From Somniosus microcephalus (taxonomy: Eukaryota), in assembly GCA_052327205.1 (NCBI GenBank), contig CM126204.1, positions 261,516,001 to 261,580,000 on the forward strand: DNA of 64,000 nucleotides, in the 5' to 3' direction. Both the position numbers and the translations under genes were made by a program. Numbering within the stretch: position 1 is the stretch's first letter; every line of letters starts with the position of its first letter. This document shows positions 443-51,229 of this stretch, one piece after another. The notes beneath the pieces were generated by a model. It worked only from the letters and a program-made list of their open reading frames with translations, was not told the DNA's origin and ran no database searches.

Positions 443-1349
443 GCCTCATTAATGCAACTTTTAAAGGAGAGAAAAGTGGCCTGACTTTCAGAGGAAATGG
501 CAAGATCAAGCGAGAGCTCACCAACATTACATTTAGTCTTCGAACGAGGGACTCGAATGCTGTCATACTCCATGCTGAAAAGGAGCAAGACTTTATCACA
601 GTTGGTATCCAGAAGTGCTATTTAATATTTATGATACAAAGTGGGAATAACCTGGGCAACCTGAGCCTACTCAGCTCAACAGCAATAAGCGATGGTCTCT
701 GGCATGACATTACTTTTTTCATGATAGATCCCTTACTTCAGTATTCCAGGTGGCAGATGGAGATAGACAAGAAAGAAGAGACTGTGACCAGTGCAGTTGT
801 CAGTGGGAACCTGAACTTTCTGTCAGAAGGAACAGACATTTATCTAGGGAGTGGAGGTCCTGAAAAAAGAGCCAGCCTCGCAGGATGCCTGAACACGATG
901 AAACTTGGTGGCATCACCTTATCATACTTTGCAAATGATAATATGCACATTATCAAACCTCAACGAGACCAATTTATCAAAACATCCTCCAATTCCGTAT
1001 TATTGGGCTGCCCAATGAAGAACATTTGTGTATCCAATCCGTGTAAAAACAATGGGAGCTGTGAGGACATGGTTAGTTATTATCAATGTAGCTGTCCTTC
1101 AGGCTGGACAGGCCTGAACTGTGAAGTCAACATCAATGAGTGTCAGTCAAGTCCATGCATTCATGGCAACTGCACTGACAAAGTCTCAGCATACAAATGT
1201 ATATGTAAACCTGGCTTCAGGGGCACTAATTGCGAAGTGAACATAGACAACTGTCGAAAGCACAAGTGTGTAAATGGAGCTACGTGCATTGATGCCATAG
1301 ACAGTTACTCATGTAGTTGTCCTAATAACTTCACTGGAAGATTTTGTGA
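443..1349 (+). CDS. CRB1: CRB1 internal coding exon (equivalent of human exon 9): third laminin-G domain plus three EGF-like repeats
   Basis: Acceptor ttttaaatacAG|gc at 441-442 and donor tttgtga|GTaagt at 1350; 907 nt. Translation (..[61 protein letters not shown]) is collinear with human CRB1 as recalled ([45 protein letters not shown]). The ORF-track start at 397 is intronic. Confidence 0.96.
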
Positions 1350-7307: not shown

Positions 7308-7433
7308 ATATCCTAGATTATCTTCTACATTCTGCATTGATGAGAAGAAAAATTGGACCTGTTATAATGGGGGAAATTGTACTGATGGGCAGAATACAAG
7401 GTGTCTCTGCCCAATAGGATTCATTGGAAGACG
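7308..7433 (+). CDS. CRB1: CRB1 coding exon (exon 10 equivalent), EGF-like repeat
   Basis: Acceptor ttttctttgtcatAG|a and donor acg|GTaagt; 126 nt, phase 2/2, compatible with both neighbours. Encodes [41 protein letters not shown], similar to human [31 protein letters not shown]. Not in the ORF track. Confidence 0.93.
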
Positions 7434-9465: not shown

Positions 9466-9592
9466 ATGCGAAGTCGACATTGATGAATGTGAATCGGGCC
9501 CTTGTCTCAACGGAGGTTTCTGCCAAAACTTGCCCAATAAGTTTCACTGCATCTGCGACATGAGTTTTGCCGGTGACCGCTGTGAGTTTGAT
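9466..9592 (+). CDS. CRB1: CRB1 coding exon (exon 11 equivalent), last calcium-binding EGF repeat
   Basis: Acceptor catcctgcAG|a and donor gat|GTaagc; 127 nt, phase 2/0. Encodes [42 protein letters not shown]. Confidence 0.95.
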
Positions 9593-9703
9593 GTAAGCGA
9601 TTTCTCCTTTTTCATCTCTTTATTACTCTGGCAGCATCTTTTTCAGCTTCTCTCCTACTTCATACTACGAATGGATGATGAACCAGCAATTGAGTGGGGT
9701 TGA
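9593..9703 (+). CDS. CRB1: Alternative CRB1 C-terminus by read-through of the exon-11 donor (CRB1-B-type tail)
   Basis: In-frame continuation [36 protein letters not shown] closely resembles the human read-through tail as recalled (VSSLSFYVSLLFWQNLFQLLSYLILRMNDEPVVEWG..). AATAAA follows at 9724-9729. Confidence 0.88.
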
Positions 9704-9723
9704 AGCTCTTGCATAACCAAGCC

Positions 9724-9729
9724 AATAAA
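9724..9729 (+). terminator. Candidate polyadenylation signal for the read-through (CRB1-B-type) transcript
   Basis: AATAAA 20 nt after the TGA at 9701-9703, followed by GT-rich sequence. Confidence 0.5.
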
Positions 9730-13900: not shown

Positions 13901-13944
13901 CTTTTATCACATTAATTACAACCACTGTAAAGGGGATGTTAAAG

Positions 13945-14935: not shown

Positions 14936-15129
14936 GGGTGGCCAGCAGAGGTCTAGCATGGAGCAGTGGAGGAGATACGGAGGTAAAAAGGGACTCGACT
15001 GTTTCAATTCAGGTAGCAGCAAGAGTGCGTCAGTGAGTCTGATTTTACTGGACATGTTCAGTAGCAGGAGGATGATGATGACGATCAGGGAAGGCTATGG
15101 CTATTGGAGGGCCATCGGGGTTCAACACT

Positions 15130-18700: not shown

Positions 18701-19605
18701 TTGCATATGCAAATAAGGGGCCTAACGTGTGTTTGAGGCCCCCTGTACAAAATTGGGTTGCTCTGAACGCCGCCAGCTTGGCCACATGAAGACCTGGTTT
18801 TCCTGAACACAGCCAGGAAAACCAGGTCTACATCCGGCCAAACCGGAGGTCCTTAAAAGGGACCATTGCAGGCAGCCACCAAAAAACATAAGTGTTTAAA
18901 AAATACTTAACTAAATATGGAACTGGGAGGAGCAGCAGAGCACCTCCTAGCTCCACATTAAAACTCAAGGGCTGCTGCCAGCCATTTCTCATCGCCCCCA
19001 CCCCCACTCCTGATCAGCCCAGTCGCAATGTCCTGATCGTCCCTCGGTTGCTATCACTGAGCCAGTGAGCACTCTGACATGAGGAGCGCTATAGAAATGT
19101 AGAACTCTGGTTTGCATTTGGTTAAGTTAGGATCACATTCATTTGGTTTTATGTTACTGATTATGACTGCTTTTAAAATGTGAGAAAAATTGGGGATGTT
19201 GCCCTGATCTACTTTTATACCCCCTCCCCCTGGTGGCCAGATTGAGAGAAGCACAAACAGGGACGGGGAATGTGGAGGGCATGAGTTCGGAGAGAGGGAA
19301 AATAAAATAACTTCATAAAAAAGAGAAAAAATATATCACGCGCTACTATGAATGCAGTATCCAACAGCACACGCATATGTTTCTGCGAGATGGCACCTCG
19401 AATAAATCTTCAATCAGGAAACACTGGTTGAAATATCAACCGATATGTCAACTCCAAACTTATACACAGAGACCTGTAGACCCACAGCTGTGATTTATTT
19501 CAGTATTAATTTGGGACCATCCACAAAGCCTGTATGCACATGTGGACAGTGTGAAAAATGGCACCACAGTATACAAGGGAAGCGGTTTTTCTCAAAGTGT
19601 AAATA

Positions 19606-20374
19606 TAGGCCCTGAAATTAGGATCGGGAGCTTGCCGCGCGTGCAAGCCCCTGATGTGCACTCACCCTGCGCGCCGACATCTGAAGCCCGGGCCTGCTTG
19701 CATTTCCTGTCACTGGCCCGGTTCAGATGTCGGCGCGATGTGCTTACCTGATCCAGCGGCGTAGTTAGTGCGATGTGCCGGCTGGGATCAGGTGAGCACT
19801 GTGCAGCCAATCAGGGGAGGGGAAACTCATTCATGAGTTTGACAGTAAGAGCTGTCAAACTCATGAAAACTCCTGGCCCCAAAACACTACTTAAACCTGA
19901 AAGAAAATTTTAAAAAAATATTGCACTACTTAAATGAACAATAAAGAACTCTGAAAAACTATTTTAAACAATAATTTTAAAATTTGAAAAAAAATGTTAT
20001 ATAAAAAATCGGGGCTAAAACTAAACTTACCTTACTGTAAATTCTTTAAAAATAACAAACCTGTGGAAAAAAAAATTCTCAATTGTACTAAAAGCCCACT
20101 TACCTGAAAAACTAAGTACTTACGTGTGGTTTTTCAATGCGTAAAGACCGGAGGCCTTTACACACGCGCAACTCTGAAAAAAAAAAGGAATTTCACTGCG
20201 CACGCGCTGCCTGTGCAGTCGCACGCGTTCTGCCTCTTAACCCCTTGGGTCAGAGGACAGGAAATGCCGGTTTTCAGCGCATGCGCTGTGCATGCTGAAA
20301 ACCGGCAATTCCTCCGGGCACACGCGTGAGTACCCCGTCCGTACTCACGCGTTGTGCCCGGAATTACTGGGCCA
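19606..20374. mobile_element. GC-rich MITE-like element with imperfect terminal inverted repeats and internal hairpins
   Basis: Ends ggccctgaaatt and aattactgggcc. CpG-rich arms around an A-rich core. A related end fragment lies at ~38380-38560. Confidence 0.6.
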
Positions 20375-21348
20375 TATTACTTTCAATCTTTTTAAACGTT
20401 ACCTCTACTTATAATGTTAATACATTTATAATGTTTTACCAATTCTCTATTTTATCATCATTAAAATAAAAATTTGTCTCACTGCAGATCTGAATTAATT
20501 TTTGGAAAAGCAGAGTTACAAAAGGTCTGGAAAAGTGTATGATTGGCAATGAGATTTTCAGCATACATACTTTGTAGATGAATCATAGTGACACTCACTC
20601 AATTACGAATGATGAACATTTTGAATTTCTCTAACTTAGCTAGACAAAATTGGGGGAAAAAGTTTGAATATTTGACCTAAATGTATTTGATTAATCTCTC
20701 ATTCACTATGCTTTTTGGGAACTACTGGTAGCGAGTTCAGATGTGTTTATCTATGATTGTATATTTAGCAATATCTTTGTGGAACTACAGTGCTACAAAG
20801 ACATCCTAGGGTACTTAACCTGTGGCTTGAAAAATCCACTGAGGGATAACAATGAGTTTTTGTTCAGAATCAGTTTATTGTCACCTTGATATATATAACT
20901 GAATAATATATATTCAGAGATGACTTTTAATATAAAATAACACTGGTATTTGTTCTGGGGGAAAAAAAACTCAAGTAGATTTTTTGGATAAAAATGTAAG
21001 ATTGTTTTTTAAGGCCAGCCAAAGACAGCAATGGGGGCCTAACAATAGATTACACCATAGGTTAAGGTATTAGCTGCAGGGTTCAGGTGTGGCTGTAACC
21101 TGAAACTGGAGGCAGGTATCGCACGGCGTCTGATAGAAATTGCTAGTTTTCAAAAGGTACAGGCAGAAACTACCAGCAAAGCAAGAAGCCAGTCTAACTG
21201 CATAGAAAAAAGGGACTTATTTGCAACCAGCCTCAACGTCTTTTTAATTTGAATTAAAAAGACTCAAGTTCCCAGGACCGATCTCTTCAGGAATATCACT
21301 TGAAATTTTGGAATTGCTTTTCAAGTTGTAGAGCAATGCTCTGTTAGA

Positions 21349-21430
21349 ATGGAAAAACGACTGCTCCTGGGCTTTGGCTGGTTGTCGGTTACAGTACTTT
21401 TACTAAAGCGAGGATCTTTGCTCACACAAG
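21349..21430 (+). CDS. Nested CRB3-like gene, coding exon 1: signal peptide
   Basis: ATG (agaATGg, A at -3 and G at +4) opens MEKRLLLGFGWLSVTVLLLKRGSLLTQ: basic N-region, hydrophobic core, polar C-region. Donor caag|GTaaac in phase 1 matches the phase-1 acceptor at 29229. Confidence 0.72.
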
Positions 21431-22485
21431 GTAAACCTGTGCTTGCTAAAAATAAAAGGAAGGTGCAGAAATAGAAATGTATCTTTTCTCAGACTGTGCT
21501 GGATAAAACTAGCCCAGACCTAATGTGTTGCTATTTTTAGATTGGATAATTATATCTGAAGTCTGTCAAATCTAAATATGTAATGGATCATCGATGCAAT
21601 GCTGGGAACAAGGGCAGTTTTTATGACTGAAATGTTTAGTATGTTTAAAGATTGGATTGAGGTGATGCTTTTACTGTTAATGGATATGGTTTTATTGGTG
21701 CATGATGCATGAGTCAAGGAGACTAAATGTGAAGAATACAGAAAGGAAAAGATCAGTAGTTTTAGTGGTCAAAGAGAAAACAACCACTGTTGTCTTCAGT
21801 TTCCCAGTATAATCAAAATACTATTATTTCCTGAAGAGGAGTTTGTACTAAATAATAAACTTACCAGTTAATAACTGAGATAAAAAGTATACTGACATAA
21901 TATTTAAAATGACAATGCCACTCACAGTAAAATGTAAAAATTATAATACTCAAACTGGGATAAATGAGAGAAAATAGGAAGTACTATGATAATTGTAAAT
22001 GGGATTTCCTTTGGGAAAAGGTGATTCAGATACATCTGAAAACATGTCAGATCTGTGCATTAACCCTTTTTCTCATAAAGCAATTGAAATTAATTCTTCC
22101 AGGGGGTTCCAGGGTTGTAAAAAACTGACTCCATCACAGCTGTCAGAACATTGCATGACACATAAGAACCAAAATGGCAGTGGGACATAAACCTGCTTAA
22201 AGATGTTGTACGGTGCTGTATCAAAACTGTCCGCAGGCAGAACAATATAGTTGAGGAAATAAATGATCCAGAATTGATTTAATCTTGGGTGCCACTGCAT
22301 TGTTTGCACATACTTGTGAAACAATCGAATGCATAACTATGCCAATTCCCAATCTGAATATGTAACTATGCCAATTTAACTTCTAAGAAGTAATTTTATC
22401 ATACAGGTGTCTCTGGGGCAATGATTTACATTTTCTAGTTACTCATACGATATATAAGCCATCAGAACTTGTCTTTTGTGGTGCA

Positions 22486-22835
22486 TAAGAAATAGGAGCA
22501 GGAGTAGACCATTTGGCACTTCGAGCCTGTTCCGCCATTCAATAAGATCATGGCTGATCTTCTACCTCATCTTCACTTTCCTGCACTATCCCTATATCCC
22601 TTGATTCCCTTAATATTCAAAAATCTATTGATCTCTGTCTTGAATATACTCAACGACTGAGCCTCCACAGCCCTCGGGTAGAGAATTCCAAAGGTTCACC
22701 ACCCTCAGAGTGAAGAAATTTCTCCTCATCTCAGTTCTGAATGGCCGAGCCCTTATTCTGAGGCTGTGACCCCTGGTTCTAGACTCCCCAGCCAGGAGAA
22801 ACATCCTCCCTGCATCTACCCTGTCAAGCCCTGTT
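22486..22835 (-). mobile_element. CR1-clade LINE 3' end fragment
   Basis: Reverse complement of the tail at 25440-25799 (cataagaaataggagcaggagtagaccat..aagatcatggctgatct). Confidence 0.8.
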
Positions 22836-23299
22836 TTACTTCACATTTTGCCGCACTTCAGTTTCCTTCTTCCTCTGCTACACTTTGTTCTCATTTGGAT
22901 ACAGTTGTTTCGTAGTCTCTGCAACGTATTTTTGAAAGTATTTATCCTCTGTGCGCCTCTATTTGTGTATCCAGCCTAGTTCTCACCTCAACCCTCAAAA
23001 TGCACTCCCTAAACTTGAGACTCTCTGATGTACTCTTCCCTTTCTTTATCGCAAGCCTAACTTTATGCTCTACAACGCTATGATTGCCGTTTTGAAAATG
23101 CTCACTATAACCTCCAGTATCAAATCCAGTATCATTCCAGCCCATGTCGGCTCCCTACCATTTGAGACATGTTATGTCAGTATCAGTTGTCCCAAAATAT
23201 ATTTTCATTCTCATTATAGATCTCTGGAGAATTCAAATCACCAACAATTACATTTGATCTTTAACACTTCACGTATCTGAGTATTAAGTTCCAAATCTA

Positions 23300-23900
23300 G
23301 TATCTCTTCTTGGTATGGTGGGTCATAACAGATCCAAATTAGTTAATATTTTTCCTTTTTATGTCACTTACATTGATCCACAATAATTTCACTTTTTCTG
23401 AACCCAGTCTAGATTCCTCACTCTCCATGAACGTCACGTCTTCTTTCACATAAAAAGCCACAGCTCCCCTCAATTCATCTTTTCTATCTCTTTGGAGCAG
23501 TTTATATCTTTGTAAATTCATCACTATACAGCCCAGCAATTCATTACTTCCCCTTGTGGTTATTTTCTTATAATCTTCTTGTATCACTATGTACTCCTCC
23601 TCTCTCCTGTACCACAACATCTGGCTTCTGTTTCTTTTCTAGTTCTAGCATTCACTAATCCCTCCCCTCACCCCCCCCCCCCCCTTACTAATTTACCGCC
23701 CCCACTTCCCAATGTACCTTTCCTGCAAGGACATTAATAGCAGTCCAATTCAGGTGAATGCTGTCCCCTTTGAACAGGCTTCCCTCGCCCCAGATTGTGT
23801 CCCAATGCCCTAGGTATCTGAAACCTTCCCTTCTACGCCACTTTTCAAGCCACATGTTCACACATCTAATTTTTTTCACTCAGGCCATGGATTCAGCAGT
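23300..23900 (-). mobile_element. Degraded CR1-clade LINE fragment (ORF1 esterase-like region and start of endonuclease)
   Basis: WLEKWRRREGFRYLGHWDT..DSIHLNW (SGNH-like ORF1) and RDRKDELRGAVAFYVKE (APE-like) remnants. Confidence 0.6.
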
Positions 23901-24611
23901 ATTTCCGAGATTGTTACCCATGAGGTCTCTCTATTAAATGTAGCACCTTACTCCTCAAGCTCACCTTTAGACCTCCATCCTACTCTTTCCTAGGACACTG
24001 GTTCCTATATGAACCTTGACTCCCGGTTGTTTTCTCTCCGATTCCAAGAGTTTTTTTTTCCAGCTTCTGCACAACTTTCCCGATCTTGGATCCCAGGAAG
24101 GAATGTATCATTCACGATTGCCAGTAACCTTTTATGTGGCACCTTATCGAAATAGGAATCCCCCATAACTATCTTATGAATAATCTCACTTGTCTGGATG
24201 GGTATCACCTCACTCCATATAGCTTGTCCTGTGTTACAGACTGTAACAAGCCAACCTTTGAGCTCAGTATTTTTCAGCTAGAGCTACACATGTCTTTCAC
24301 CTGTACTCTTCCAAATCCAGGCAGAGTATACCATGCATGTTGCACACTTCACAAGTGTGGCTTCGGACCTTGCCATTCCTGTGTTCAGGGCTATAATGCT
24401 TCTTGGAGTTACTGTCCTTATGTTATGCTCTCTATGGCCTCTTGCTCCTCCTTACCAGCTTAACACAATGCATAAATGATTTTCATAACTTGACTTACCT
24501 TAATATACTAATTTAGCACACTCTTTTGAATAGCCTTCCCATTTTAATATAATAGATAATATAATTATCTTTAAAACTGCCTTGTGTACTTAATATATCA
24601 CCCCTCATCAA

Positions 24612-25799
24612 TTTTGGATTTCCAGAAGGCATTCGGTAAGGTGCCACATAAAAGGTTACTGCATAAGATAAGAGCTCACGGAAGTGGGGGTAATATATTA
24701 GCATGGATAGAGAATTGGCTAACTAATAGAAAGCAGAGTCGGGATAAATGGGTCATTTTCCAGTTGGCAAACGGTAACTAGTGGGATGCCACAGGGATCA
24801 GTGCTGGGGCCTGAATTATTTACAATCTACATTAATGACTTGGATGAAGGGACCGAGTGTAATGTAGCCAAGTTTGCGGATGATACAAAGATGGGTGGGA
24901 AAGCAAGTTGTGCAGAGGACTCAAAGAATCTGCAAAGGGATATAGACAGGCTAAGTGAGTGGGCAAACATTTGGCTGATGGAGTATAATGTGGGAAAGTG
25001 CGAGGTTATCCACTTTGGCAGGAAAAATAAAAAAGCAAACTATATTATTTAAATGGAAAGAGATCACAAAATGCTACAGTTCAGAGGGACCTGGGGGTCA
25101 TTGTGCATGAAACACAAAAAGTTAGCATGCAGGTACAGCAAGTAATCAAAAAGGCAAATGGAGTGTTGGCCTTTATTTCAAGAGGGTTGGAGTATAAAAG
25201 CAGGGAAGTCCTGCTACAACTGTACAGGGTATTGGTGAGACCACAGCTTGAGTACTGCGTACAGTTTTGGTCTCTTTATTTAAGAAAGGATATACTTGCA
25301 TTGGAGGCAGTTCAGAGACGATCCACTTGGTTAATTCCAGAGATGAGGGGGTTGACTTATGAGGAAAGGTTGAGCAGGCTGAGCCTATACTCATTGGAAT
25401 TTAGAAGAATGAGAGGTGATCTTATTGAAACATAAGATACTGAGGGGGCTCGACAAGGTAGATGCAGAGAGGATGTTTCCCCTCGTGCGGAAATCTAGAA
25501 CTCGGGGGCACAGTTTCAGAATAAAGGGGCGCCCTTTTAGAACTGAGATGAGGAGGAATTTCTTCTCTGAGGGTCGTAAATCAGTGGAATTCTCTGCCCG
25601 AAAGAGCTGTGGAGGCTGGGTCATTAAATACATTTAAGTTGGAGATAGACACATTTTTGCAAGATAAGGGAGTGAAGGGTTATGGGGAGTGGGCTGGGAA
25701 GTGGCTTTGAGCCCAAGATCAGCCATGATCTTATTGAATGGCGGAGCAGACTTGAGGGGCCAACTGGCCTATTCCTACTCCTATTTCTTATGTTCTTAT
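24612..25799 (+). mobile_element. 5'-truncated CR1-clade LINE (RT C-terminal part plus 3' tail)
   Basis: Frameshifted LDFQKAFGKVPHKRLL, PQGSVLGP, FADDTK, LVRPQLEYCVQFWS and RRMRGDLIE motifs. Ends in the tatgttctta-type tail. Confidence 0.92.
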
Positions 25800-28143
25800 A
25801 ATAGTGCAGTCAAAATGCTAACTGATTAACCCAAGGATTAAGATATATAAAATAATGCTAAATTATTAAGAAATTCATGCACATTGGGAACTGGTGGTTT
25901 ATTGAAAGTAAATCACTCATTTGCAGCAACATAACTCACAAGGCTTGTGGACTTCCTATACACCATCAGTCTCTAGTATATGTCCTCCATGAAACATCAA
26001 AACAGTTTTTAGGCATCTCTATGCACCCACTGAAATGTTCAGGAAACGTAAGGACAAGGATCTGTGCCACTTACTAATCTCCGATTGAGGGAGATTGGTC
26101 TCCACATTGGAAAGATATGTTCGTCACAAGTGTAGTAAAAGTGCATGAAACAGGCCCTTGTGTAACCTGTAACTGAGAGTTAAAACATTAACAGCACATC
26201 AAAGAAAGCCAAATAAAAAGGAGAGGCAATAGGAAGATTCCCTGAAAGTTTAAAGGAAATGAATCATTCATTCATCTTAATGCTGTGCAACACCCACTCA
26301 AGCTATATATGGAGAACTCTTAACAGGCAAAATAAAAAAAGTAAAGTTCTTTTATGATTAAACAAATCAAGAAAAATTTCAATGTTTTCCACTTTAACCA
26401 GAATTTAAAAAGGTACTTTACTGTATAATTTCCGGTCAAATAAGTGAAATATTCTTTAAAAAAAAATTACCTTGCAGGCCTAGAATACTTGAAGGGAGGA
26501 TTTCATTTTCAATGAGTATTAGGGTAGCACACTGTCTAACAGGCATTCCGACAGACACCACATTTATATCAATTCAGGTACAGCAAAAGACATGGTAATG
26601 TGTTGCTTGCATCAGCCTGAGTACAATGTACTATGAGGAACTCTGGGACAGCCAATGACTATGCGGATGCAGCTGCCCACACTCGCTCAGCTCCTGTGTA
26701 GGCCTAGGCACAAAGGAAGGCTGGGATTATTCAACTTTTCTCTCTGAAAACATACAATTTTTGAAGGGAAAAAAATCCAAACATAGAAATTGTTGCACTG
26801 CGCTGAATCCATTTATTAACCATTCTGCCATTAATAAGTAGATCTTGGCAGGACAGCTCTTTACCCTGTTAAGTCCTAAAATAAACTATGTTTCAGCTTT
26901 CAAAAAGGGATAGTGCAATTGCTAAAAATAATCTTTGAAACACACTTAATCAGACCCATGCTGAGTAGAACATGGGAATTTCTAGACAGGGTCCGTCTAG
27001 TTTGCCGTCTACCATCCTGGTAGTTGCACGATACAGCAAAAATGAAGATGTTGATTAATCATATGATGACCTGACTGACTGAATACTGCACTTTCAGATA
27101 AAATGAAGATACACGAATACCTCAGAGTGACTGAGGGTAACCTCATGTAACAGGTTGCATCATACACATCAACCCAGCAGCTAATCCTTCAATGACAAAT
27201 GCCAACACAACCAAACTAAGAAAGCTCCTTCCTTGCTCACAAAAGATCCAACTGAACATCAATAACTGACGCTCACGGCGCTGTTTCAGGAAATTGAGAA
27301 TAAGATCAGTCCTTCAATAACAGTTCTGCAGTGGAGTGCAATTAATTTTAAGGTGTACTGTCTTTAAGAAAAACAATGTTTGGAAAGCTTTCTCCTGTTT
27401 ATTGGAAAAGAGAAGACCCAGAAGAGGGGCTCATTCTGCTCCAACATTGTTATGTGTCACTAATGCAGTAACATATTTTGTCTTGGTTTACCTTACTGCA
27501 TCGTGTGTTTTCAATGAATCAAACAAAACAGGCTTGCCAGACATTTTTCCCATGAAGATGATATTCCTTGACAAGCTTACAAAGGCAGTGGTTAGTTTCT
27601 GTAGAACTGGCTTTCTAGGATTAGATCCTGGTATTGGTCTTCTTAACACCCATGTTTAAGCTTTGTCTACACTCAGCTGTTTTGCATTAGAGGGAGCCTT
27701 GATTTGCCCATCATTATTAGTTACTTTGCTGCATGGAACTAACACTTTTGTTCTGCATCTCAGCCTCTGCAGTCTTAGAGCAAGTTATGCCCCTATTGTA
27801 GGTCAGCTATACTTGAGCTCCTACAAAATAACGTGAATTGTATCAGTTCAGCTTTTTGCACCAGGTATTAGACCAATTGGAGATATTTTCAAACCATTTG
27901 GCTTTCCCATTGGCTGCAGTTGTAACTGATGTCAGGCCAGCATTATAAGCTAAGTTTGAAAAGACACCACTTAGTTCACTCGGCCACCTTCGGGTTTCTA
28001 ATATTAGTAAAGAGTTGGCAACCGCATTAGCTTTTCTTCAGTATTAGAATTTCACCAGCAGCTGAGGACCAATGAAGAGTTGGACGTTTGGTACTAATGC
28101 ATAGAGGGCAACCTTGCCTGACTAGGGGGCGGGGGCAGTAGAT

Positions 28144-28983
28144 TAGGCTGACCATACATCCCCATTTTCCAGGGACAGTCCCCGGATTAGGTACCGTGTC
28201 CCTGGGCAAACACCGTCTCCGGAAGTGTCCCCGGTTCAGGAAACTCATCCCCGAATACAGCCATATTCATTGGCCCACTGGTCGGCAGGAGTTGGGTAAA
28301 CACGAATGTTCAGAAACCCAGGGGGGAGCTTCTCGTCCTATTCACACCCGGTTTGAGCTCAGGAACGGAATCCAGGAGCCGGTTGAATGGAGGCGATGAT
28401 GACAGCCCCGACTTCCCACAATGCAGCGTGGTGGAGAATCGGCTCCAATTATAGCTCGAGCTGCCTTGCACTCTGGGAGATTGAGTCACCTGACCCCATG
28501 TTTTGGCCAATAGTGACTGGCCGGAGGGCGGAACCTTTAAAGTGTGCGGGAGAAGCCAAAGGCGCAGTGTGAGCTGGTGAGTGAGTGGATTTATTTTACC
28601 TCACAGCTCAGTAAGGAGCATTGTGTTGTTTTTTAAGGAATAAGGCAAGCTCTAAATTATCCCACCGGAAAGAGGATTCTGAAACCTTCTGAGACAGAGG
28701 GTGTTTCACACATTATATGGAAAATCTCAGTCTATTTGGAACAGATTTAAAATTGAGAAATTAAAAGTTAGGATATTCGGGGACGAGTATAGCTGGTACA
28801 GCACTATTACCAGAACAAAAGCAAGATTCAAGATTCGGTGTAAAGTGAAAATGGTGTTGTCTCTACGTGTGTTCCACTAGCAGAAGTTCATCTTGCCGGC
28901 CTTCTTGAAAAGCGTCCTGGCTACTTTGCTGTGCTCCCACCCTGTGTGTCCCCGCATTCACTTTAGAAAATATGGTCACCCTA
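28144..28983. mobile_element. Non-autonomous hAT MITE (Blackjack-like termini)
   Basis: TIRs TAGGCTGACCATA and TATGGTCACCCTA (12/13 match). 8-bp TSD CAGTAGAT / CAGTAGAC (7/8). Subterminal GTCCC/GGGAC repeats. No transposase ORF. Confidence 0.85.
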
Positions 28984-29228
28984 CAGTAGACCACTCTGGT
29001 TCACACACTTTCATTGTAAATGCAGGTATCTGCTACATCGGCGAAGCTCACTTCAGGGGTTAGCAGCCGCTCACTGGCGCAGAAGCATTTTAAATTATTT
29101 ACTGGGTAATCCTTCACTTTGACAGAGAAAAGTTGGTGATTTGTGTTTAGTATTGGGTAGATTTGTAACAAGTTACAAATTTTCAACATTTCAGTACCGT
29201 CTTCATGTTAGTGTTGGTTCCTTTACAG

Positions 29229-29281
29229 CGGTGAATGTAACAGATCCTACACAATCAACAAATGCTGATAGCACATCATCT
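29229..29281 (+). CDS. Nested CRB3-like gene, coding exon 2: short Ser/Thr-rich ectodomain with N-glycosylation sequon
   Basis: Acceptor gttggttcctttacAG|cg and donor tct|GTaagt; 53 nt, phase 1/0. Encodes (A)VNVTDPTQSTNADSTSS with an N-V-T sequon, like the mucin-like CRB3 ectodomain. Confidence 0.8.
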
Positions 29282-30592
29282 GTAAGTTGATAGATTTAAC
29301 TTGACCTAATGTTAATATAGACTATGGTTTCAGTCTAACTCAACTTTTAAGGTACAATTCACAAAGGATTTAGTAAAAACTGCTTCTGTAACACCACAGT
29401 TTCATCTTTGAAATCTCAATTGATCTTCCAATTATCACTAATAGGATACTGTTAGATTAATACCATGATCAATGCTGCAGCTATTAAGAATCCTTTTCAA
29501 TTAAAATGAAGACAAATTAGTGCAATTATATGCATTATCCTGGTAATGCATCCATGTAGAAGTGCCACTTGAGAGAACCCAACTGCAGTTTCGAAACCTT
29601 TCGTGCTTTTGTTGTGGAAATGCTTCTGATATAGAAGGGCATGGTTTTCAATAACAAGCATTGAATTAGATACAAAAATTAATAATTCATTATGCATGAA
29701 ATATTACATTAGGCTTTAATCTAGAACTAGTCCATTGTGTGATCAGTGTTACATAACTGTGGAAGCCTGGGTCAGATGCATACAGATAAGGCAGTGAAGT
29801 TGTAGTAGTCCAGCAGATCTAGTGATAAAACAGTGGACGCCATTGCTGCTGACCTGGGCTCAAATTCTAACCTCAGTTGGCCTTTCATCTCAGCTAACCC
29901 CCCAAATAAAGAGTTTCAGCAGTTCTCAACCAGACCACCTTGTGGTTAGTGGAGTGGCCCCAATCTCAGGGGAAGGGTCGTATTGCAGCCTGGATAGCAT
30001 GCCCATCAGCTGGTATGCAGTAGATGTTGTGCTGAAAGTGGACATGGGGCGAGTCCACATTAGACCACCATCTCACCACTCTCTCACGTAAGAAAACAAC
30101 AGGAAGGCAGTTGAAATGAGGATGTAAAAGTGAATTTTTATTTTAAACAACAGGGAAGTTGTATGTATTTATAAAAGATGTAAGTTTTAAGAAGTATACA
30201 TGTAGTTGAGGGCAGTGGAAACACATGACCTGGTGGCATTGTAGTCATTGAATTATCCAGCACAGAAGGCAGCTATTCGGCCCATCGTGCCTGTGCCGGC
30301 TCTTTGAAAGAGCTATCCAATTAATCTCACTCCCCTGCTCTTTCCCCATAACCTTGCAAATTTTTCCTTTTCAAGTATTTATCCAGTTCCCTTTTGAAAG
30401 GTACTATTGAATCTGCTTCCACCGCCCTTTCAGGCAATACATTCCAGATCATCATAATTTGCTGCGTAAAAAATAAGCAAACTGAAAAAAATGAATCAAG
30501 TTGGGCTTTTAACTCATAGGCACTGGCTAGATTAAAATATGTCCCATTTGTGTGAGGCTTTCTAATAATAAAAATGCGAATTATTTTCACAG

Positions 30593-30814
30593 ACAAATCC
30601 GCCACCAAACAAAGTAAACATAGCAGCCATTGTGGCTCCCTGTGTGATTGGTGGGGTGATAGTTCTAGCTATCATTCTGACTTTTCTAATTCTAAAACTG
30701 CGTGAGAAACGTCAGACTGAAGGGAACTACAGCCCAAGCAACCAGGAGCAGACTGGATCTCGGATGGAAATGAACAATACCCTTAAACTGCCGCCAGAAG
30801 AGCGCCTTATCTGA
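30593..30814 (+). CDS. Nested CRB3-like gene, terminal coding exon: TM helix, FERM-binding motif and ERLI PDZ-binding tail
   Basis: Acceptor ttattttcacAG|aca, phase 0. Encodes [90 protein letters not shown] and [10 protein letters not shown] match human CRB3 rather than CRB1. Confidence 0.92.
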
Positions 30815-31055
30815 TATGTTCAGGCTCTGGGACGCACAAGACTTGGGGTGTTATGGTGGAAGGAGTAGGAGAAGTCAACAGATTCCAGGTATTCCCCCTG
30901 TTACTCAACAAGTTAGGAGGAAGAGTAACGTCACGAAGCTGTGCAACTCCAAGTGTATGTGTGTGCACGTGTTTTCTTTAAACCACGGCAGCTTCAAAGC
31001 TAACCCTGTGTGGGTTATCCTTAAACTGTTTAACCGTTTTGACTCTTGTCGACAG

Positions 31056-31271
31056 GATGTGGAAACCTGGACCTCAGAGATTCTGCTGTATATTGGGTTG
31101 GTCACCGTGGCGTTGTTGCTCCTTTTCTTTCTAGTCCTCACTGCCTCCGTTGTGACCCTGAATAAAAGAGCAACGCACGGGGCGTACAGCCCAAGCCAGC
31201 AGGAGAAGGAGGGATCGCGGGTGGAGATGTGGAACATGGTGCACCCACCCCAGGTGGAGAGACTTATCTGA
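31056..31271 (+). CDS. CRB1: CRB1 canonical terminal coding exon (exon 12 equivalent): TM plus FERM-binding and ERLI tail
   Basis: Acceptor gactcttgtcgacAG|gat, phase 0; 216 nt. Encodes [71 protein letters not shown], close to human [52 protein letters not shown]. Confidence 0.96.
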
Positions 31272-31679
31272 ATGAACCCTGAAGCTTGGCAAATCGTTTC
31301 TACGTATGGTGGTATATCATTGCTGTATGTACAGGCCGAGGATGCCATCCTATTCAGCGTGCCACAAGGAATGCTTTAGCTCGGATTGAAAGTTTTTAAA
31401 AGTGTAGTTTAAATCAATTGATTTGCCAAGTTGTTGCCTGAACAGTCCGAAATACCATTAAAAAATTGCTCCATTTTAATTCTCCCTTTCCGCAAAACTG
31501 TCAACAGAAAATGATTTACAATACAAGTATGTAATTCACGTTCTGAATATAGAACACGCACAAATACAGGAAGAAGATAAACCATTCAACTATACAGAGA
31601 TGGATGGCCCTAGCTTGGAGGTTTCAGAAAAGGTAAAATGCCCATGTAACTCCTCCTCTTCATTTAGGGAGCACTTTTA

Positions 31680-31685
31680 AATAAA
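31680..31685 (+). terminator. First canonical AATAAA after the CRB1 stop (candidate proximal polyA signal)
   Basis: AATAAA about 410 nt after the stop. Further AATAAA hexamers occur downstream (e.g. 38074-38079), so the real 3' end cannot be determined from sequence. Confidence 0.3.
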
Positions 31686-31802
31686 AACAAGATCATAGGC
31701 AATGGAGCTTTGAACTCCTCCCTGTGAAATATGGCAATAGAACCAATTGTTTATAAACATAGGAATAGTGCTAATAACTCTTATCCTTCCTTCTGTGATA
31801 GT

Positions 31803-32076
31803 GGCTTGGAGTTTGCGCTATGTTGCGATTTTTTTTCAGCACAAAAGATTGCGGAATTTCAAGCGCAGCTTATGTCCAGCGCAAATCAAGTTGCCGTGAT
31901 CTTTTGCACTAGTTTAAAAAACATTGCGCTAGAAGCTGACAGACTTTAAGTTTGGCGATAGGCAAATGAGTTTGAGCAGAAACTTGGAAAAAAAAAACAC
32001 GTCTCAAAACTAGCACAATTTTGGGCACAATTTGCACCCGGATTGCCGATTGCGCCCAAAGTGGAAACTCTACCCC
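31803..32076. mobile_element. Small MITE-like element downstream of the CRB1 stop
   Basis: Imperfect inverted ends ggcttggagtttgcgct and aagtggaaactctacccc; CpG-rich relative to the flanks. Confidence 0.45.
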
Positions 32077-33566
32077 AGTGTCTTTACTTCTGCACAATTC
32101 TAATCTTTAGTTTTGTAAACTGCTGAATCTAAACAAACTACAAGTACCATTTCTTGCTCATTATCACAACAAAGCAGTACACCGTAACCAATATATTTCA
32201 GCTGGACAAAATATCAGTCTCTTTATGTATGACTGTCTTTCCTAATGTGACCCAGTTATGTCACAAAGTTTCTAACACATGGCTAATGGCAGTTCTGGTC
32301 ACCACCAGGACCTAGAGCGACCACCTTAACCCTTTCCTTCTTTGGGAGACTCTGCTCACCAAAAGAAGTCAAACCCTTCCTTTTCTAATGAAGACAGAGG
32401 TGAAGCTCGGACAGAGTTTAATCCCGAGCCACAATTTTAATCCAAGCCGCCCGGCAGGAGCATTCCATGGAGCATAAAGTCGGGTGGGGTGTAAAACAGG
32501 CGTCCGACACCAACCCACCCTTTTTTCGCCGAGCCTCAGGTTAAAACCAGGGCTCTAGTCTCTTAAAAGAGATGGGAAAACTTCTTGCTTAAATATTTTT
32601 ACTAACAATATTACAAAGTAACTATGCCCAGAGAAGGTATTTTTTGAATCTGATGAAATAAACTGTTCTAGTTACGCAAACTATTTCATTAGTTTCAAAC
32701 TAATTCTTTAAAGAAATCAAAGCTCGGTTAATATTATAGGAATAAAGCTTTTGTGAAGTGAAGGGTTTCTACCTGGAATGTTAATCCAGATTTTCTCTTT
32801 TCAGATGCTGTTTATTTCCAGCATTTTCTGTTCTTATTTCAGATTCCTAGTGTTTACCATTAGTCATTCTTTTTAACTCTGAATTTTTACTGACACCAGT
32901 TTTAACCTATATTGGGACAGATCTGAAGAAAAGTACAATTAATAGGGCAAAAAGGAAATTGCTGTCTAATGAATGGAATGAGGATAATTTTTGCCAGATT
33001 ATGTATTTTAAACATGTATTTTCAAAATCTCCTCTCACCACTTTACCTCTTTCTGTACTGAATATACATTTCAAATTAAATATATGTTAATCATAACACA
33101 AACAAAATAAATATTTTCAGTACTCGACTAATGTTAGCATTATACAGAAAATCAGTTAAAGAATGTTTATCAATTGCTAATATTTTCTGATTTGGATTTT
33201 TTTAAATGTTATTTTCTACTCTTATGCTGAAATGTTATTGTCGTTCTCAAAGGGTTAAAGGTCAACTGCCCACACTCAGATTTTTTCAGCAGCAGCAGAT
33301 GTTGGTGATAGTAAATGCCAAGAACAAATGAACATGGAGCGTGGGATCAATGTATCAATTAGAGTGTATATATTTAGAGTATAATAGAGTCATTTATAGT
33401 CAGGATTAATTCCAAAGGTGCGTGTCTGTGTAAGTTTGACTGCCATTGCCTCAGAGTGAGAAGGCAACAGTGCTGATGGTATAACACAGCTATTAAAACA
33501 AATAACAAGGCAAAACTAACTAATGATGTATAGCAGTCAAATATGATTTCCAACTTGTGCAAATTA

Positions 33567-34005
33567 CATAGAATTTTACAGCACAGAAACAGGCCATTCA
33601 GCCCAAAATGTCTGTGCCAGAGGCTATGCTCCACACGAGCCTCCTCTCACTCTCCTTCATCTCACCCCATCGACATATCCTTCTATTCCTTTCTCCCTCA
33701 TGTACTTATCTAGCTTTCCCTTAAATGCATCTGTGCTATTCGCCTCAACCACTCCATGTGGTAGTGAGTTCCACATTCTCAACACTCTGAATGAAGAAGT
33801 TTCTCCGGAATTCCCTGTTGGATTTGCTGTTACTATTTTATATTTATAACCCCCTACTTTTGGACAACCCCACAAGTGGAAACATCTTCTCTACGTCTAC
33901 CCTATTGAACCCCTTCATAATTTTAAAGACCCCTATTAGGTCACCTCTCAGTCTTCTCTTTTCCAGGGAAAAGAGCCCCAACCAGTTCAGTCTTTCCTGA
34001 TAGTA
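33567..34005 (-). mobile_element. CR1-clade LINE 3' fragment
   Basis: LGLFSLEKRRLRGDLIGVFKIMKG and MWNSLP motifs on minus; homologous to 10490-10935. Confidence 0.85.
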
Positions 34006-40549: not shown

Positions 40550-42747
40550 TAGGGTTGCAAAGGGGTGGAAAGTTTCCGGTAAATTTCCAGAAATTTTCCA
40601 CGGGAAGTTTAGCTTGGGAATTTTGCCCAAAAAAGCATATGCTAGCATAATATTGTTTTTTTTGTATTTCTTTCTTTTTTTCCCCCACAGGTCCTCTCTT
40701 AATAATTAAGATTCCATCTCTGTTAGTAATTTTAAGGAATTTCTTAATCAATATATGTTTATCTTCTTACTTGACTTGTTTTAATAATTACAAGTTTTGT
40801 GTGTGACTGTGAACAAGTGTGTCCTGATTGGTTGGATGAGTGGATGAGCGATTAGCTCCCTCTATTTGTAATATTTGCATATCGAATTGTGATTGGCCTG
40901 CAGGCATCTGTAAGACTGCTATAGTTTTTTTTAAGATCCAGGTTAGGGGACCTGAGGGAAGTCATTTTGTTTTCTGCTGATGTGATGATGCAGTAAGTAA
41001 ATCAGACTTTATACCAAATAAACCAGTTACTTGTTGAACTCTGTTGTCCTTCAATTTAAAATATACAAATTAATACACTATTGGTGATGTAGCATCGTGT
41101 GTGTACAGGTCATGCTTCCATCACATGGAGCATCAGCAAAAATGTACTCACCCTGTTGCAATCATGCTGATCGACCGCAGTTCGACACAGAGATGAATGC
41201 CCTTTATTTCTCTGCATAGAACAATGCCACATTTACCGTCGGATGTGTGGAAGCATTTTACCCCAGGCATTAAAGATGGAAAGACTGTGTACATGTGCAA
41301 ACACTGTAGAAAGCCATATGTAAAGAATGCCACAAAGATGCAGCAGCATTTATCCAAATGCAACAACTTCACTCATATTACGTCTATTGGGTGCGCAGCT
41401 CATGGGCTTAACCTGCTCAAGGACATCATGGGTTTGAGAACCATGGAAGCACTGTACAAGAGAGCCAAGCAAGTTGTTAAGTATGTCAGGGGAAAACAGG
41501 TAGTTGCAGCAACCTACAACTCCAAGCAAATGACAAAGAACAAGAACACCACACTGAAGCTGCCCAACAACACTAGATGGGGTGGTGTTGTCATAATGTA
41601 CAACAGCCTTCTGGAGGGTAAGGAGTCGCTGCAAGAAATGGCAATATCCCAGTCTGGGGATATGGAAACCACCATCAAGAAAATACTGCTGGATGATGTG
41701 TTTTGGGAGAGAGTGGTTAGCAGCCTTAAACTACTCTCACCAGTAGCATCTGCAATTGCTCAGATTGAAGGAGATGACGCTGTCTTGTCAGATGTTCTCA
41801 GGCTTTTTACTGATTTAAAAGAACAAATCAGCATTGCCCTACCCACATCCCTGCTGCTCAAAGCAGAGGAGAAGGCAATTGTTCAATTCATACAGACGCG
41901 TCAAGAAATTTGTGTCAAGCCGATTCATGCTGCAGCATACATGCTGGACCCAAAGCATGTTGGGAGACCAAAACTTTCTGGAGAACAGATCAACAGCGCT
42001 TACAGTGTGATTTCTACCCCCTCACACCATCTCAATCTGGATGTGGGCAAAGTTCTGGGAAGTCTGGCAAAGTTCTCTACCAAGCAAGGTCTTTGGAATG
42101 GGGATGGGATATGGGAATCATGCAAGCATATCAGTGCACATACCTGGTGGAAGGGACTTTGTGCATCTGAGGCCCTGTCACCTATTGCATCGGTGATACT
42201 CCAAATCCCACCTTCATCAGCGGCCTCTGAACGAAACTGGTCACTTTTTGGGAATACGCATACAAAGGTGCGCAACAGGCTGACTAACAAGAGAGTGGAG
42301 AAACTGGTGGCTATCCAGGCGAACCTACAACTTATTGAGCCAGATACAGAAGTGTCCACCACACAGCTAGACACTGACACAGAGGAGGAAATGGACACGT
42401 CAGAGCCAGAGAATCAGGAGGAGCAATGAGGAGTAGAAGAATCAGAAGACTCATGAGTAGAAGACTCAAAGGGACAAAATAAGGACAAATTACAGGCTAA
42501 ATAAGCTGACGCTCTTTTTATTTTATTTTAGATGGGTCTTTTTTGTGGGGGTTCAATAAAGTTCAAAATTATAACCTAAATAAAGTTTTGAAAGCCTGTT
42601 TTTATTTGTATGGAACAGTATGTCTATTTTGAGGACAAATATAAGGGTCAGAGACAAAAACCATCAGTGTGCAAAAAAACTCAAAATTCCCATAAATTCC
42701 CATGGAAAGTTTCCTCTTTTAAAAATTCCCAGAATTTTGCAACCCTA
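40550..42747 (+). mobile_element. hAT DNA transposon, internally deleted
   Basis: Perfect 12-bp TIRs TAGGGTTGCAAA (40550-40561) and TTTGCAACCCTA (42736-42747). Perfect 8-bp TSD GCTGAGAT (40542-40549 and 42748-42755). Subterminal GGAAA/TTTCC repeats. Confidence 0.95.
41197..42429 (+). CDS. hAT transposase-derived ORF (BED zinc finger, CxxH, C-terminal hAT dimerisation domain); N-terminal catalytic segment missing
   Basis: SDVWKHF..CKHC..H..C BED finger joined directly to CAAHGLNL. Also TRW, WWK and SSAASERNWS..KVRNRL motifs. 410 aa with no stop. Confidence 0.85.
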   Translation: MPFISLHRTMPHLPSDVWKHFTPGIKDGKTVYMCKHCRKPYVKNATKMQQHLSKCNNFTHITSIGCAAHGLNLLKDIMGLRTMEALYKRAKQVVKYVRGKQVVAATYNSKQMTKNKNTTLKLPNNTRWGGVVIMYNSLLEGKESLQEMAISQSGDMETTIKKILLDDVFWERVVSSLKLLSPVASAIAQIEGDDAVLSDVLRLFTDLKEQISIALPTSLLLKAEEKAIVQFIQTRQEICVKPIHAAAYMLDPKHVGRPKLSGEQINSAYSVISTPSHHLNLDVGKVLGSLAKFSTKQGLWNGDGIWESCKHISAHTWWKGLCASEALSPIASVILQIPPSSAASERNWSLFGNTHTKVRNRLTNKRVEKLVAIQANLQLIEPDTEVSTTQLDTDTEEEMDTSEPENQEEQ

Positions 42748-47708: not shown

Positions 47709-48257
47709 CTAAGTGTTGGTAGTGGAAGCACCAACACTGGAAATAGTGTGACCGGTTTCAATTCTGGAACATAAACAGTCGATCTCTTTGAGTAGGTCTA
47801 TTTCACCTGTGGGTTCTAGCAATTCAGCCTCAACAGCGTCTTTCTCCCAAGGGATTAAAACGGATGGGTATTTTGGTGTATTTTGACACTGCTCTTCGTA
47901 GGTACCGTCTCCACTGGTTAGTGTTTGCTTTGGCTCCTTTAGTTTGGCTGAAATCTTTTTCTTCTGCTTTGATTCTTCACTGGAGGCAAGGGTTGCCACT
48001 GAAGCTTTAAAAGACGAGTCACTATTGAGTTTCGGAAAATTTGTCAACTCTTCAACAAACACACAGGAGTTTTCAGAAGATGTCATTTCAAAGGTAACCG
48101 GACATTCAGAAAAATAACAAAATGATTTCCTTGGAGATGGGGGAAGGGGCTTTCTATGGACAACAGTATCATCTTGTCCCAGGTGCCAACTCAGATGATC
48201 ACCATACCCTACACCAAGTTCAGCCAGGTTTCCCTCACTAGGAGTATTGAACTTGTT
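47709..48257 (-). CDS. DENND1B: DENND1B terminal coding exon
   Basis: Minus-strand acceptor ttattttgttAG|aac, phase 0; 549 nt. Encodes NKFNTPSEGNLAELGVGYGDHLSWHLGQDDTVVHRKPLPPSPRK...IPWEKD...EIDLLKEIDCLC...NT*, resembling human DENND1B as recalled (NKSNAPSENNL..WNLGQDD..LPPSPRK..VPWEKE). CRB1-DENND1B tail-to-tail synteny matches human. Confidence 0.9.
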   Translation of the reverse strand, partial: NKFNTPSEGNLAELGVGYGDHLSWHLGQDDTVVHRKPLPPSPRKSFCYFSECPVTFEMTSSENSCVFVEELTNFPKLNSDSSFKASVATLASSEESKQKKKISAKLKEPKQTLTSGDGTYEEQCQNTPKYPSVLIPWEKDAVEAELLEPTGEIDLLKEIDCLCSRIETGHTISSVGASTTNT

Positions 48258-48756
48258 CTAACAAAATAAGAAGAAACACGTTAAGTATGAGATCTCCCAA
48301 AACTTTAATGATTAAAAAAAGCAATTCATTGTCAAATATGAAAGGCACATCTACAATAAATCTCCTATACAAAATAGCTATTTCTTATATCATCTTCCGT
48401 TATTTAGCATTTTCAAATTCATTAAGATTTAACGAGGCAACAATTACTTTTGACTTTTCTGCACTTTTTCTTTCCAAATTAGCTCTCAACAGCATTGTGT
48501 TGGGACAGGATGAGAGCCACAACACAGATGCCTCCAGGGATTACATTAGTGGCATTCTTTGGTCAACCAACTAAGGTGTATGCATAAAAAGATTAACAAA
48601 CTGACTTAGACTAAGAAATTTCAGTGTCTAGGGAAAGCAGCCTCAATCGAGATGATTTTTTTGAATTCAAATAGCTAGTGAACTTGAGTCACATTAGCTT
48701 TGATGTTTTAACTTGTGCACTATCACGATCCTAGAACTTTAATACAGAGTACTCAC

Positions 48757-48973
48757 CCCAGCTTTATAACTGATATCATCCATTGATTTGAAGAAATCCA
48801 GGCTCTTTGCACCACACAGCTTTCCTTGATCTGAACTGTGTGTACTGAGGGTATCAAGGATCTCTCCCAACAAGTCCATCTGGCCTGGAGATTGTGACTC
48901 TAGTTCCATCTGTTCAGAATCATCACTGTCATCAATATAGGCACATACTTCTCCACTGTCTTCCGATGATACC
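48757..48973 (-). CDS. DENND1B: DENND1B penultimate coding exon
   Basis: Acceptor ttcttAG|g and donor ggg|GTgagt; 217 nt, phase 2/0. Encodes VSSEDSGEVCAYIDDSDDSE..MDLLGEILDTLSTHSSDQGKLCGAKSLDFFKSMDDISYKAG. The MDLLGEILDTLSTHSSDQGKL..AKSLDFF block is characteristic of DENND1B. Confidence 0.93.
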
Positions 48974-51229
48974 CTAAGAAATATGAATACTTTAAGTAGC
49001 TGAGCTCTGCAAGATGCAAGTCATACTTAGTTTGCTTAACCAGCGCCACTACCTGCATGAACAAAATCAGTCATTTATTACTTTTAAAGGTTTATTAAAA
49101 GCTACAATTTTTACTTAAAATTGTTGATGTTGTAACACAATTTAAAGTGCTTAATATAAGTTACATGAAACTTAAAATAAGTATGAAGGATAATTTATGC
49201 TGAGTGAAAGGTTAGCAGAAAGGTCAAGTGATGCACCTGATCAAATCACCTAGACTACTTCTCTTAGTTACTGTATCTCTATGAAATAAGGACAGTGCAA
49301 ACAGTTTTATTCCACGTGTAATCTGGGAAGTGTAAATATGAAATTCAAACACATTAAAACAAATTCAAATATTTTTAAAAGTATGTTAGAAATGCAATGG
49401 ATCACTGCTAATAAAAAGATAATACAAATACTTCTGGTTATAAGTTGACAAAAAGTCATTTGTGACACCATCACTTGTGAGTTCTGAAGTTGTTCTAGAC
49501 TTGGTCCTTGGGTAAACCACATAAATTGCTAAACTGTTGAGGCTATTAACATGGAAGAAGCTGGCCCCAGCTTATTCCAGAAAGGCACTCCACTTTGTTC
49601 AGGAGAAGCCAATCACCAGGTTGAGAGACGAGGAGATGACAATTGAAATAACACGGTTTCCCATAACATTCGTAGCACATCAAATAGCTATTAATCAATG
49701 GTGACGTCATAGGACAATGGAAAATGTGCAAGTAATTACTATGTGGAAAGATTAAGCTCCAATGAAGAGCTTTCGAAAAGGCATCATCAGTACCAGGACC
49801 CAGATGTAAGCTGCCCTTGGATCCTGGATGCCAACTGAAATAGGGGGAGGGAAAGGGAGGGGAGGGATGGAAGGAGGTAAAATATTCTGATTATATTACT
49901 TTGAATCTTTCTGGTAGAAACGAGACCATGGTCATGGTCCTTTCCCAATAGCCTCTGTATGCATCAGCACTGATGAATATCCCTTTGCTTAACTAGATCT
50001 GATCATCCTACCTGCAGGGGCATTGGGTTGTAGAGTTATATTAAGCAGAAAAGGAAGAATATCAGCACCCAGTGATGTCTACCCCTGCAGGTTCCATTAG
50101 TAAGCAAGGCTGGCTGGTCAATCATCAACATGTCCTGGAAGATGCAGGCCTACCTGACTCAAGTATTGAATTACTGATCCTGCCATAATAGTTTGATTTG
50201 GTTCTGAGCTTGTAATACCAGATTTGTCATATTGGCGACCTTAACCTCAAAAACAACCAACTTGCCTCGTGCCCCTAACCTCAGACGACAGTCACTTGGC
50301 AGTCATTAGACAACTGACAAATGCAGGTATCAGCCACTGCCAGGCAGACAGAAGGTACCAAGAGCTCATCACCGGGGCATGGTGCATAGGCAACTCTCCA
50401 TAAAATATGCAACTGCATTGTCACCATCCTCCTGACCACAGCAGAGGCACACATCATATCCCATCAGACAGTAGTAACACCAGTAAGAGGTATGGAGCAT
50501 CTTCAGCAGTAGTTGCAGCCAAATCATGGTAGTCACCAAGCCCTCCAGCAAGTCTTAGATTTTACTCATCACCTTTGCAATACACATCTGCCTTCAATGT
50601 GGTGGAAGAACTTACAAAGGTTTGCTTGCCAGGTGCCAGCCACCTTTACCTAAATGTCTAGGGTAGCACATTCACACTTATTTTTTATGTTTTCCAATAT
50701 TGTATAGATTTGCTTACACGTGGGATTGAAGTGTAACCTCTTCTTCTCCCCACTTTCTCTGGTTTGCTTCTAAGCAATGGTGAAAACTGCTATGCAAGAT
50801 TATAAAGCAATTTGACTAAATAGGACCACAATTAAAGTCCAAGTACCACAGAATAACTGCAAGAAATATTTTTGACCTTTGTTAATGGAATACTAAATGC
50901 AAATCCTGACCAAAGTCACCATGCATCCACACAATCAGTAAATATTATGCTTAAAAATAATAAATTCAAATCATGCTGTTTTTGTTGTATTTAGTCGACA
51001 AAATTACCAAGATACAATCATTTTTTTTGTATAGGCACATTAAAAAGGGCTACACACTATCAGGATGGTTTTTTTTTTATTTGATGGGATATCAAAAACA
51101 ATCATATTGCAGTGGGCAGGAATGCAATACTTTTCCCTACTTTTAACATCTAGTATCAGTATTACCCATATTCATAATCAAGTAAACCACAGATAGAGGG
51201 TTGTACTGTAATACAGTATTGTTCTGACC

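Follow-up and report, generated by a model that had tools for sequence, protein, structure and literature searches.

Tandem Crumbs tail exons and a predicted nested CRB3-like unit at the 3' end of shark CRB1, with a proposed origin in splice forms older than the Crumbs paralogs

The 3' end of shark CRB1 and its two tail exons

In the window analysed here (the whole stretch of 64,000 nucleotides from contig CM126204.1 of the shark Somniosus microcephalus), a CRB1 gene on the + strand reaches its 3' end. The ectodomain is represented by a large laminin-G and EGF exon (443..1349, +; Pfam EGF and Laminin_G_2; 92% identity to shark CRB1 over 302 aa, with splice sites taken from the sequence), an EGF exon (7308..7433, +; 83% over 46 aa in tblastn, with AG/GT ends) and the last EGF exon (9466..9592, +), which we take to be exons 9, 10 and 11 of the human numbering. 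The phase-0 donor of exon 11 at 9592 is the decision point of the gene. Left unspliced, it would give a CRB1-B-like ending, namely a hydrophobic read-through of 36 aa (9593..9703, +) with polyadenylation near the AATAAA at 9724; this read-through is annotated as the end of the Mustelus CRB1 protein (record P0033). Tail to tail with the Crumbs gene lie what are likely the last exons of a gene that we presume to be of the DENND1 type (47712..49020, -), DENN-domain exons of which follow further along the - strand. This neighbour serves as a synteny marker: human CRB1 presumably also adjoins DENND1 tail to tail, and a homologous exon adjoins the shark CRB3 locus. Three marks of a CRB1 ortholog are thereby found together, i.e., an EGF and laminin-G ectodomain, a CRB1-type last exon and the DENND1-type tail-to-tail neighbour.

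Two complete tail units are present in tandem, as an earlier note on this DNA had proposed: tail A behind the proximal acceptor (30593..30814, +; 73 aa plus stop) and tail B behind the distal acceptor (31056..31271, +; 71 aa plus stop), with an offset of 463 nt. Each combines a hydrophobic transmembrane (TM) stretch, a FERM-binding motif of the form GxYxPS and a terminal ERLI, and each follows a phase-0 AG. The Crumbs-tail family has no Pfam match in the window. The units are not chance occurrences: tail A matches both the solved tail of fly Crumbs (PDB; e-value 2e-9) and named shark Crumbs proteins (88-97% identity). Tail B is of the CRB1 type. The label 'CRB3-type' that the note gave to tail A is apt as far as it goes, but too narrow, since the tail is also of the CRB2 type. 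The two upstream donors, at 9592 and at the end of a serine/threonine-rich (S/T) exon at 29281, both read GTAAG and are in phase 0, and from these phases all four joins of an ectodomain with a tail are indeed in frame.

The spacer between the tails (30815..31055, +; 241 nt), which is crossed by one continuous contig, was scanned for polyadenylation signals and contains neither AATAAA nor ATTAAA, as had been stated; it does hold two weak variant hexamers that had gone unmentioned (AACAAG at 30907 and TTTAAA at 30977). It is likely to be 3' UTR in transcripts that use tail A and the end of an intron in those that use tail B. An AATAAA also lies within the coding sequence of tail B (31161-31166) and is a possible cryptic polyadenylation signal for tail-A transcripts. 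The next canonical signals, ATTAAA at 31457 and AATAAA at 31680, are candidates, together with AATAAA at 32657, for the end of a likely common 3' UTR (31272..32372, +). In transcripts spliced at the proximal acceptor, the spacer and tail B would both be untranslated.

The predicted short unit and the joins represented in public models

A scan of the last CRB1 intron yielded a single candidate for a further first coding exon (21349..21430, +), which has a phase-1 donor, encodes a predicted signal peptide (judged on hydrophobicity only) and matches residues 1-27 of named 118-aa proteins. Joined to the 53-nt S/T-rich stalk exon (29229..29281, +; phase 1 in, phase 0 out) and to tail A, it forms a frame of 118 aa, of which 88-105 of the 118 residues are identical to those of seven named shark and ray proteins. 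When tail A was used as a database query, 18 of 20 candidates proved to be hits: five represent this nested unit (88-97%) and 13 a separate CRB3 (58-64%). The unit shows the CRB3-type organization throughout, with a signal peptide, a short S/T stalk, TM, FERM motif and ERLI in ~110-120 aa. It is not, however, the CRB3 ortholog, for which there is a separate locus in this genome (C31, see below), and it forms a clade of its own that is sister to CRB3. Going by these features, the nested unit would work like CRB3 but is a different gene from it, and it can be dated only back to the common ancestor of CRB1 and CRB3. The signal-peptide exon, the read-through ending of exon 11 and the CRB2 tail pair described below had all been overlooked in the earlier note.

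The exons and isoform models in question are already in public databases, and we used these to ask which joins are represented. For the long ectodomain, the acceptors do appear as alternatives in predicted RefSeq models: isoform X1 ends in tail A and isoform X2 in tail B in Scyliorhinus canicula, Cetorhinus, Chiloscyllium plagiosum and C. punctatum. Isoform predictions of this kind are usually based on RNA reads aligned across splice junctions. These models from four shark species argue against a strictly exclusive pairing of exon 11 with tail B and of the stalk exon with tail A, the outcome that the note had named as speaking against tail swapping. A search of longer proteins with tail A gave five hits among 77 candidates, all CRB1, whose clusters comprise 36 records; among the 32 listed records, in clusters found with a tail-A query and hence biased towards A, 11 are long forms with a clean join of exon 11 to tail A (from seven shark species), six are long forms with tail B, one is the read-through, two are the short unit with tail A, three are irregular A-type models and nine have other ends.

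Could the long forms with tail A be annotation chimeras, and the short unit simply a separate CRB3-like gene that happens to lie within the final CRB1 intron? NCBI does name it as a gene of its own, 'crumbs homolog 3-like'; the RefSeq records of Hemiscyllium and Callorhinchus have a long form with tail B plus a separate short model; and in two genome-project models (P0019 and P0049) exon 11 continues into the signal exon, so gene prediction does produce fusions. Against this stand the 11 clean joins of exon 11 to tail A in seven species, and the CRB2 gene, in which tail A follows the long ectodomain in shark as well as in frog and fox. Moreover, four of the shark CRB1 records with other ends stop three residues past exon 11, which, as judged from the codons, fits out-of-frame splicing of exon 11 into the stalk exon. 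We hence regard two separate genes as improbable and favour alternative use of shared exons. In the window, the join of 9592 to 29229 adds one residue before a stop at 29234; this form would be a predicted secreted ectodomain, and with the stop 47 nt ahead of the next junction it might escape decay. Further AG acceptors are found in the intron just upstream of the stalk exon (29195-29228), and models from Carcharodon (X2) and Callorhinchus extend the stalk exon into this segment; these models have no signal exon.

The remaining combination, the short unit with tail B, belongs to the full cassette of the earlier note, in which all four combinations of ectodomain and tail are made. Three of the four (long with A, long with B and short with A) occur among the predicted models. 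The in-frame phases would permit the fourth, and by a crude measure acceptor B of CRB1 has the better pyrimidine tract (13/20 vs 9/20 for acceptor A), with branch-like motifs at -26 and -17. Nevertheless, a tail-B search of proteins of 39-125 aa (three hits among four candidates) returned none with signal and stalk, and none of 17 short B-tail records inspected by eye shows signal and stalk directly on B. A contig from a relative of this shark is likewise unbroken at 31056. These negatives are weak; since the short form with tail B was sought and none was found, the switch looks three-way rather than four-way, and we think it unlikely that the whole set of four is produced. The three-way switch would then operate as follows: splicing of donor 9592 to 30593 would give the long form with tail A; splicing of 9592 to 31056, skipping A, the long form with tail B; and an internal promoter, presumably upstream of 21349, would start a message in which the signal exon is spliced to the stalk exon and this to tail A, giving the 118-aa protein. 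The choice of tail may depend on tissue.

The contig just mentioned comes from a set of 16 listed sequencing runs, eight of them RNA by guess, of which four were aligned to positions 20400-33600 of the window (donor 9592 lies outside this stretch). In run X1, from another species and RNA by guess, a contig of 1789 letters aligns to 30593-32372 at a depth of 34; the repeat-free intron bins of the same run have a depth of ~0-4. Its alignment opens precisely at acceptor A, after a lone letter that does not align; T is the last letter of either upstream exon, and a fork in the assembly graph would then account for one surplus letter. The contig is consistent with splicing at acceptor A and with a UTR spanning the spacer and tail B. 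The shared 3' UTR postulated in the note is in line with this one relative's contig (RNA by guess), continuous over 30593-32372; contigs do not show RNA ends. The aligned runs displayed no read spanning an exon junction, repeats having taken up the tables of joints and loose ends. In the raw RNA runs X15 and X16, of which 24% and 31% were read, there is almost nothing on the tails: place by place, X15 has one read at 30790 and at 31052-31122, and X16 has none. Run X12, of unspecified kind, covers tail B and the UTR and not tail A, an absence that contigs cannot demonstrate.

Tails at the CRB2 and CRB3 loci and the proposed age of the tail pair

Five Crumbs tails are found at three loci of this genome: two at CRB1, two on contig C23 and one on C31 (three further weak genome matches, with e-values above 1, were dismissed). 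The C23 gene has a long ectodomain followed by both tails, A ahead of B as at CRB1, with phase-0 acceptors separated by 1261 nt (A at 29083123 and B at 29081862, - strand). The annotated C23-type gene of Heterodontus has isoform X1 with tail A and isoform X2 with tail B, and that of Callorhinchus has the B exon too (P0069). The identification of the C23 gene as CRB2 draws on best hits, synteny and tail identity: the C23 tail A shares 32 of 34 residues with fox CRB2, and tail B shares 21. Conversely, an unnamed long protein of the CRB1 clade shares 28 residues with tail B of shark CRB1 and 19 with tail A. CRB2 records from fox and frog have tail A at their end. A scan of the last CRB2 intron for signal and stalk exons gave weak candidates only, none of them convincing; in this CRB2 differs from the CRB1 of the window. 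The pyrimidine tracts at CRB2, by the same crude measure, are 15/20 for acceptor A and 10/20 for acceptor B, such that at each locus the better tract belongs to the tail that mammals kept (B at CRB1, A at CRB2). CRB2 also has a hydrophobic read-through of its last EGF exon (from G000:C23:29094699 downward, - strand), in common with CRB1 (9593-9703). The comparison raises the possibility of a 'CRB2-B' form and of a read-through ending that is older than the duplication.

The CRB3 locus (G000:C31:38800308-38807008) comprises a signal exon, a 50-nt stalk exon with the same phases as the 53-nt stalk exon of the window, and tail A; the last exon of a DENND1-type gene lies ~9 kb away. The nested unit resembles it in having signal, S/T stalk and TM + FERM + ERLI exons in the same phases, with ~62% identity of the tail, but differs in lying inside CRB1, where one tail exon likely serves both this unit and the long form. 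No ectodomain match was found in the 160 kb fetched around C31 CRB3, which include 93 kb upstream of it, and no remnant of tail B within 10 kb downstream. DENN-domain exons face the CRB1, CRB2 and CRB3 loci tail to tail; the last DENN exon of the window has no match at C23, and other DENN exons match there.

We built a tree of the tails from 51 rows and 64 columns, with rows chosen from ~200 proteins. The labels of the unnamed rows and of the 14 outgroup rows were assigned by us, and the outgroup could not be separated from the other rows by a single branch. Every A tail falls into one clade (98/95) and every B tail into a second (98/96), i.e., the tails group by position and not by locus, although the strength of this grouping is modest. 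Tail A of CRB1 is sister to CRB3 (99/92), and tail B of the window falls within the clade of CRB1 B tails (100/100). Topology (AU) tests, run after the tree was seen and on 50 rows (the long-branched first tail of tarpon being dropped), did not reject holding the two CRB1 tails together (p=0.052) and modestly rejected doing so for the two CRB2 tails (p=0.039) and for both CRB1 tails with CRB3 (p=0.018). The 64 columns are few, and these locus-wise tests are borderline. In a tree of ectodomains (15 rows, the window's own exons being left out) the shark CRB1 rows and a B-tailed long protein form a clade with support of 100, and the C23 type lies outside CRB1, its placement among the CRB2-like rows not being settled. 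The trees by themselves are consistent with the age proposed below rather than strong evidence for it; much of the weight is carried by exon order, phase, the third ending and the neighbouring gene.

Taken together, these observations lead us to consider it probable that the alternative start and the alternative last exons belong to one CRB1 locus, are older than the duplications that gave CRB1, CRB2 and CRB3, and were reciprocally lost in the paralogs; the loci compared for the age of the tail pair are those of jawed vertebrates. Mammalian CRB1 would have kept B, CRB2 would have kept A and CRB3 the short unit with A; the splice forms of a single ancestral gene are likely shared out among the three Crumbs genes of mammals. 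A rival to this age is a history of later independent events, in which a CRB3 copy moved into CRB1 and the second tail of CRB2 was gained separately by duplication, conversion or convergence. Such a history could draw on the closeness of CRB1 tail A to CRB3, on the short unit being seen only at CRB1 and CRB3, and on the locus-wise grouping at CRB1 that was not rejected. It needs, however, two events that made CRB1 and CRB2 agree in tail types, order and phase, and it has to accommodate the read-through ending of exon 11 common to CRB1 and CRB2 and a DENN neighbour kept at all three loci, as a block duplication predicts; we accordingly hold it to be very unlikely. The fly Crumbs tail is B-like in its first half and A-like in its last half, and hence the two exons may have split the binding properties of an ancestral tail.

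Extending the ancient-pair interpretation to other vertebrates, we lean towards a combined reading in which an early vertebrate Crumbs had three endings (read-through, A and B) and, at least in the ancestor of CRB1 and CRB3, two starts. The mammalian CRB1, CRB2 and CRB3 would be frozen subsets of its isoforms, the tail difference between CRB1 and CRB2 would be older than the genes themselves, sharks would still switch tails at both CRB1 and CRB2, and the teleost crb3b would be the nested unit of crb1 rather than a fish duplicate of crb3a.

Relation to known Crumbs forms

The bony-fish part of this reading stems from gene models. Those of tarpon and eel (P0058 and P0103) have an A-like tail and then a CRB1-type B tail in tandem, and in a mudskipper 'crumbs homolog 3b' (P0145) the TM region is of the A type, whereas a stretch of 23 residues after it is identical to two CRB1-type tails of unnamed proteins. 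Because these models join A-type and CRB1-type tails, they suggest that teleost crb3b may correspond to the nested unit of crb1. Zebrafish crb3a and crb3b are explained as a fish duplication in the text available of PMC5676222, an interpretation that would change if this were true.

Mammalian CRB1 has isoforms A, B and C with alternative first and last exons and with intracellular ends that differ by retinal cell (PMC7335077). The shark locus is similar in combining alternative starts and ends at one locus, and its ending at 9593-9703 resembles the antigen of mouse CRB1-B; it differs from mammalian CRB1, as far as the latter is described in the accessible part of that study, in having a second ERLI tail exon and a short CRB3-like unit. 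Further, mammalian CRB1-B is described there as being without the conserved motifs, which both shark tails keep. The CRB3A/CRB3B splicing covered in the portions available of PMC4668553 replaces ERLI with CLPI and is no swap of two ERLI tails. The short form of zebrafish crb2b is a parallel in that a shorter Crumbs arises from an internal start that brings a signal sequence of its own, but it keeps most of the ectodomain, and tail choice is not described in the available parts of these accounts (PMC11129452, PMC5676222). A Xenopus 'crb3L' that seemed a relevant form is crb3.L, as used in the accessible text of bioRxiv 2023.01.24.525309, and is irrelevant here.

Under subfunctionalisation, each copy of a duplicated gene may keep one splice isoform of the ancestor; the Crumbs genes would add to this general case that the undivided state survives in sharks. 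In the literature searched, which leaves most subscription journals outside, we found no account of Crumbs in these terms and no description of the twin tails, the nested unit or their evolutionary reading. CRB1 and CRB2 are disease genes of the retina and the kidney, and gene-therapy work makes use of the fact that they are partly interchangeable. If their tails were originally alternative exons of a single gene, the differences between the paralogs would have a simple origin, and sharks would offer a natural system that pairs one ectodomain with either tail. Trees built on Crumbs tails alone, such as those in the part available of PMC4359734, would in that case mix the history of exons with the history of genes.

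Several mobile-element-like segments lie in and beyond the last CRB1 intron. High-copy repeats of LINE/SINE-like kind (22200-23000, 24400-26100 and 30100-30540), one of which ends ~150 nt upstream of acceptor A, dominate the read depth there. Downstream of the tails is an open frame of 410 aa (41197-42426, +), which resembles a hAT-family transposase, and further on are LTR-retrotransposon-like gag/pol frames (53973-58349, -), split into pieces of 335 and 694 aa with protease, reverse transcriptase and integrase look-alikes.
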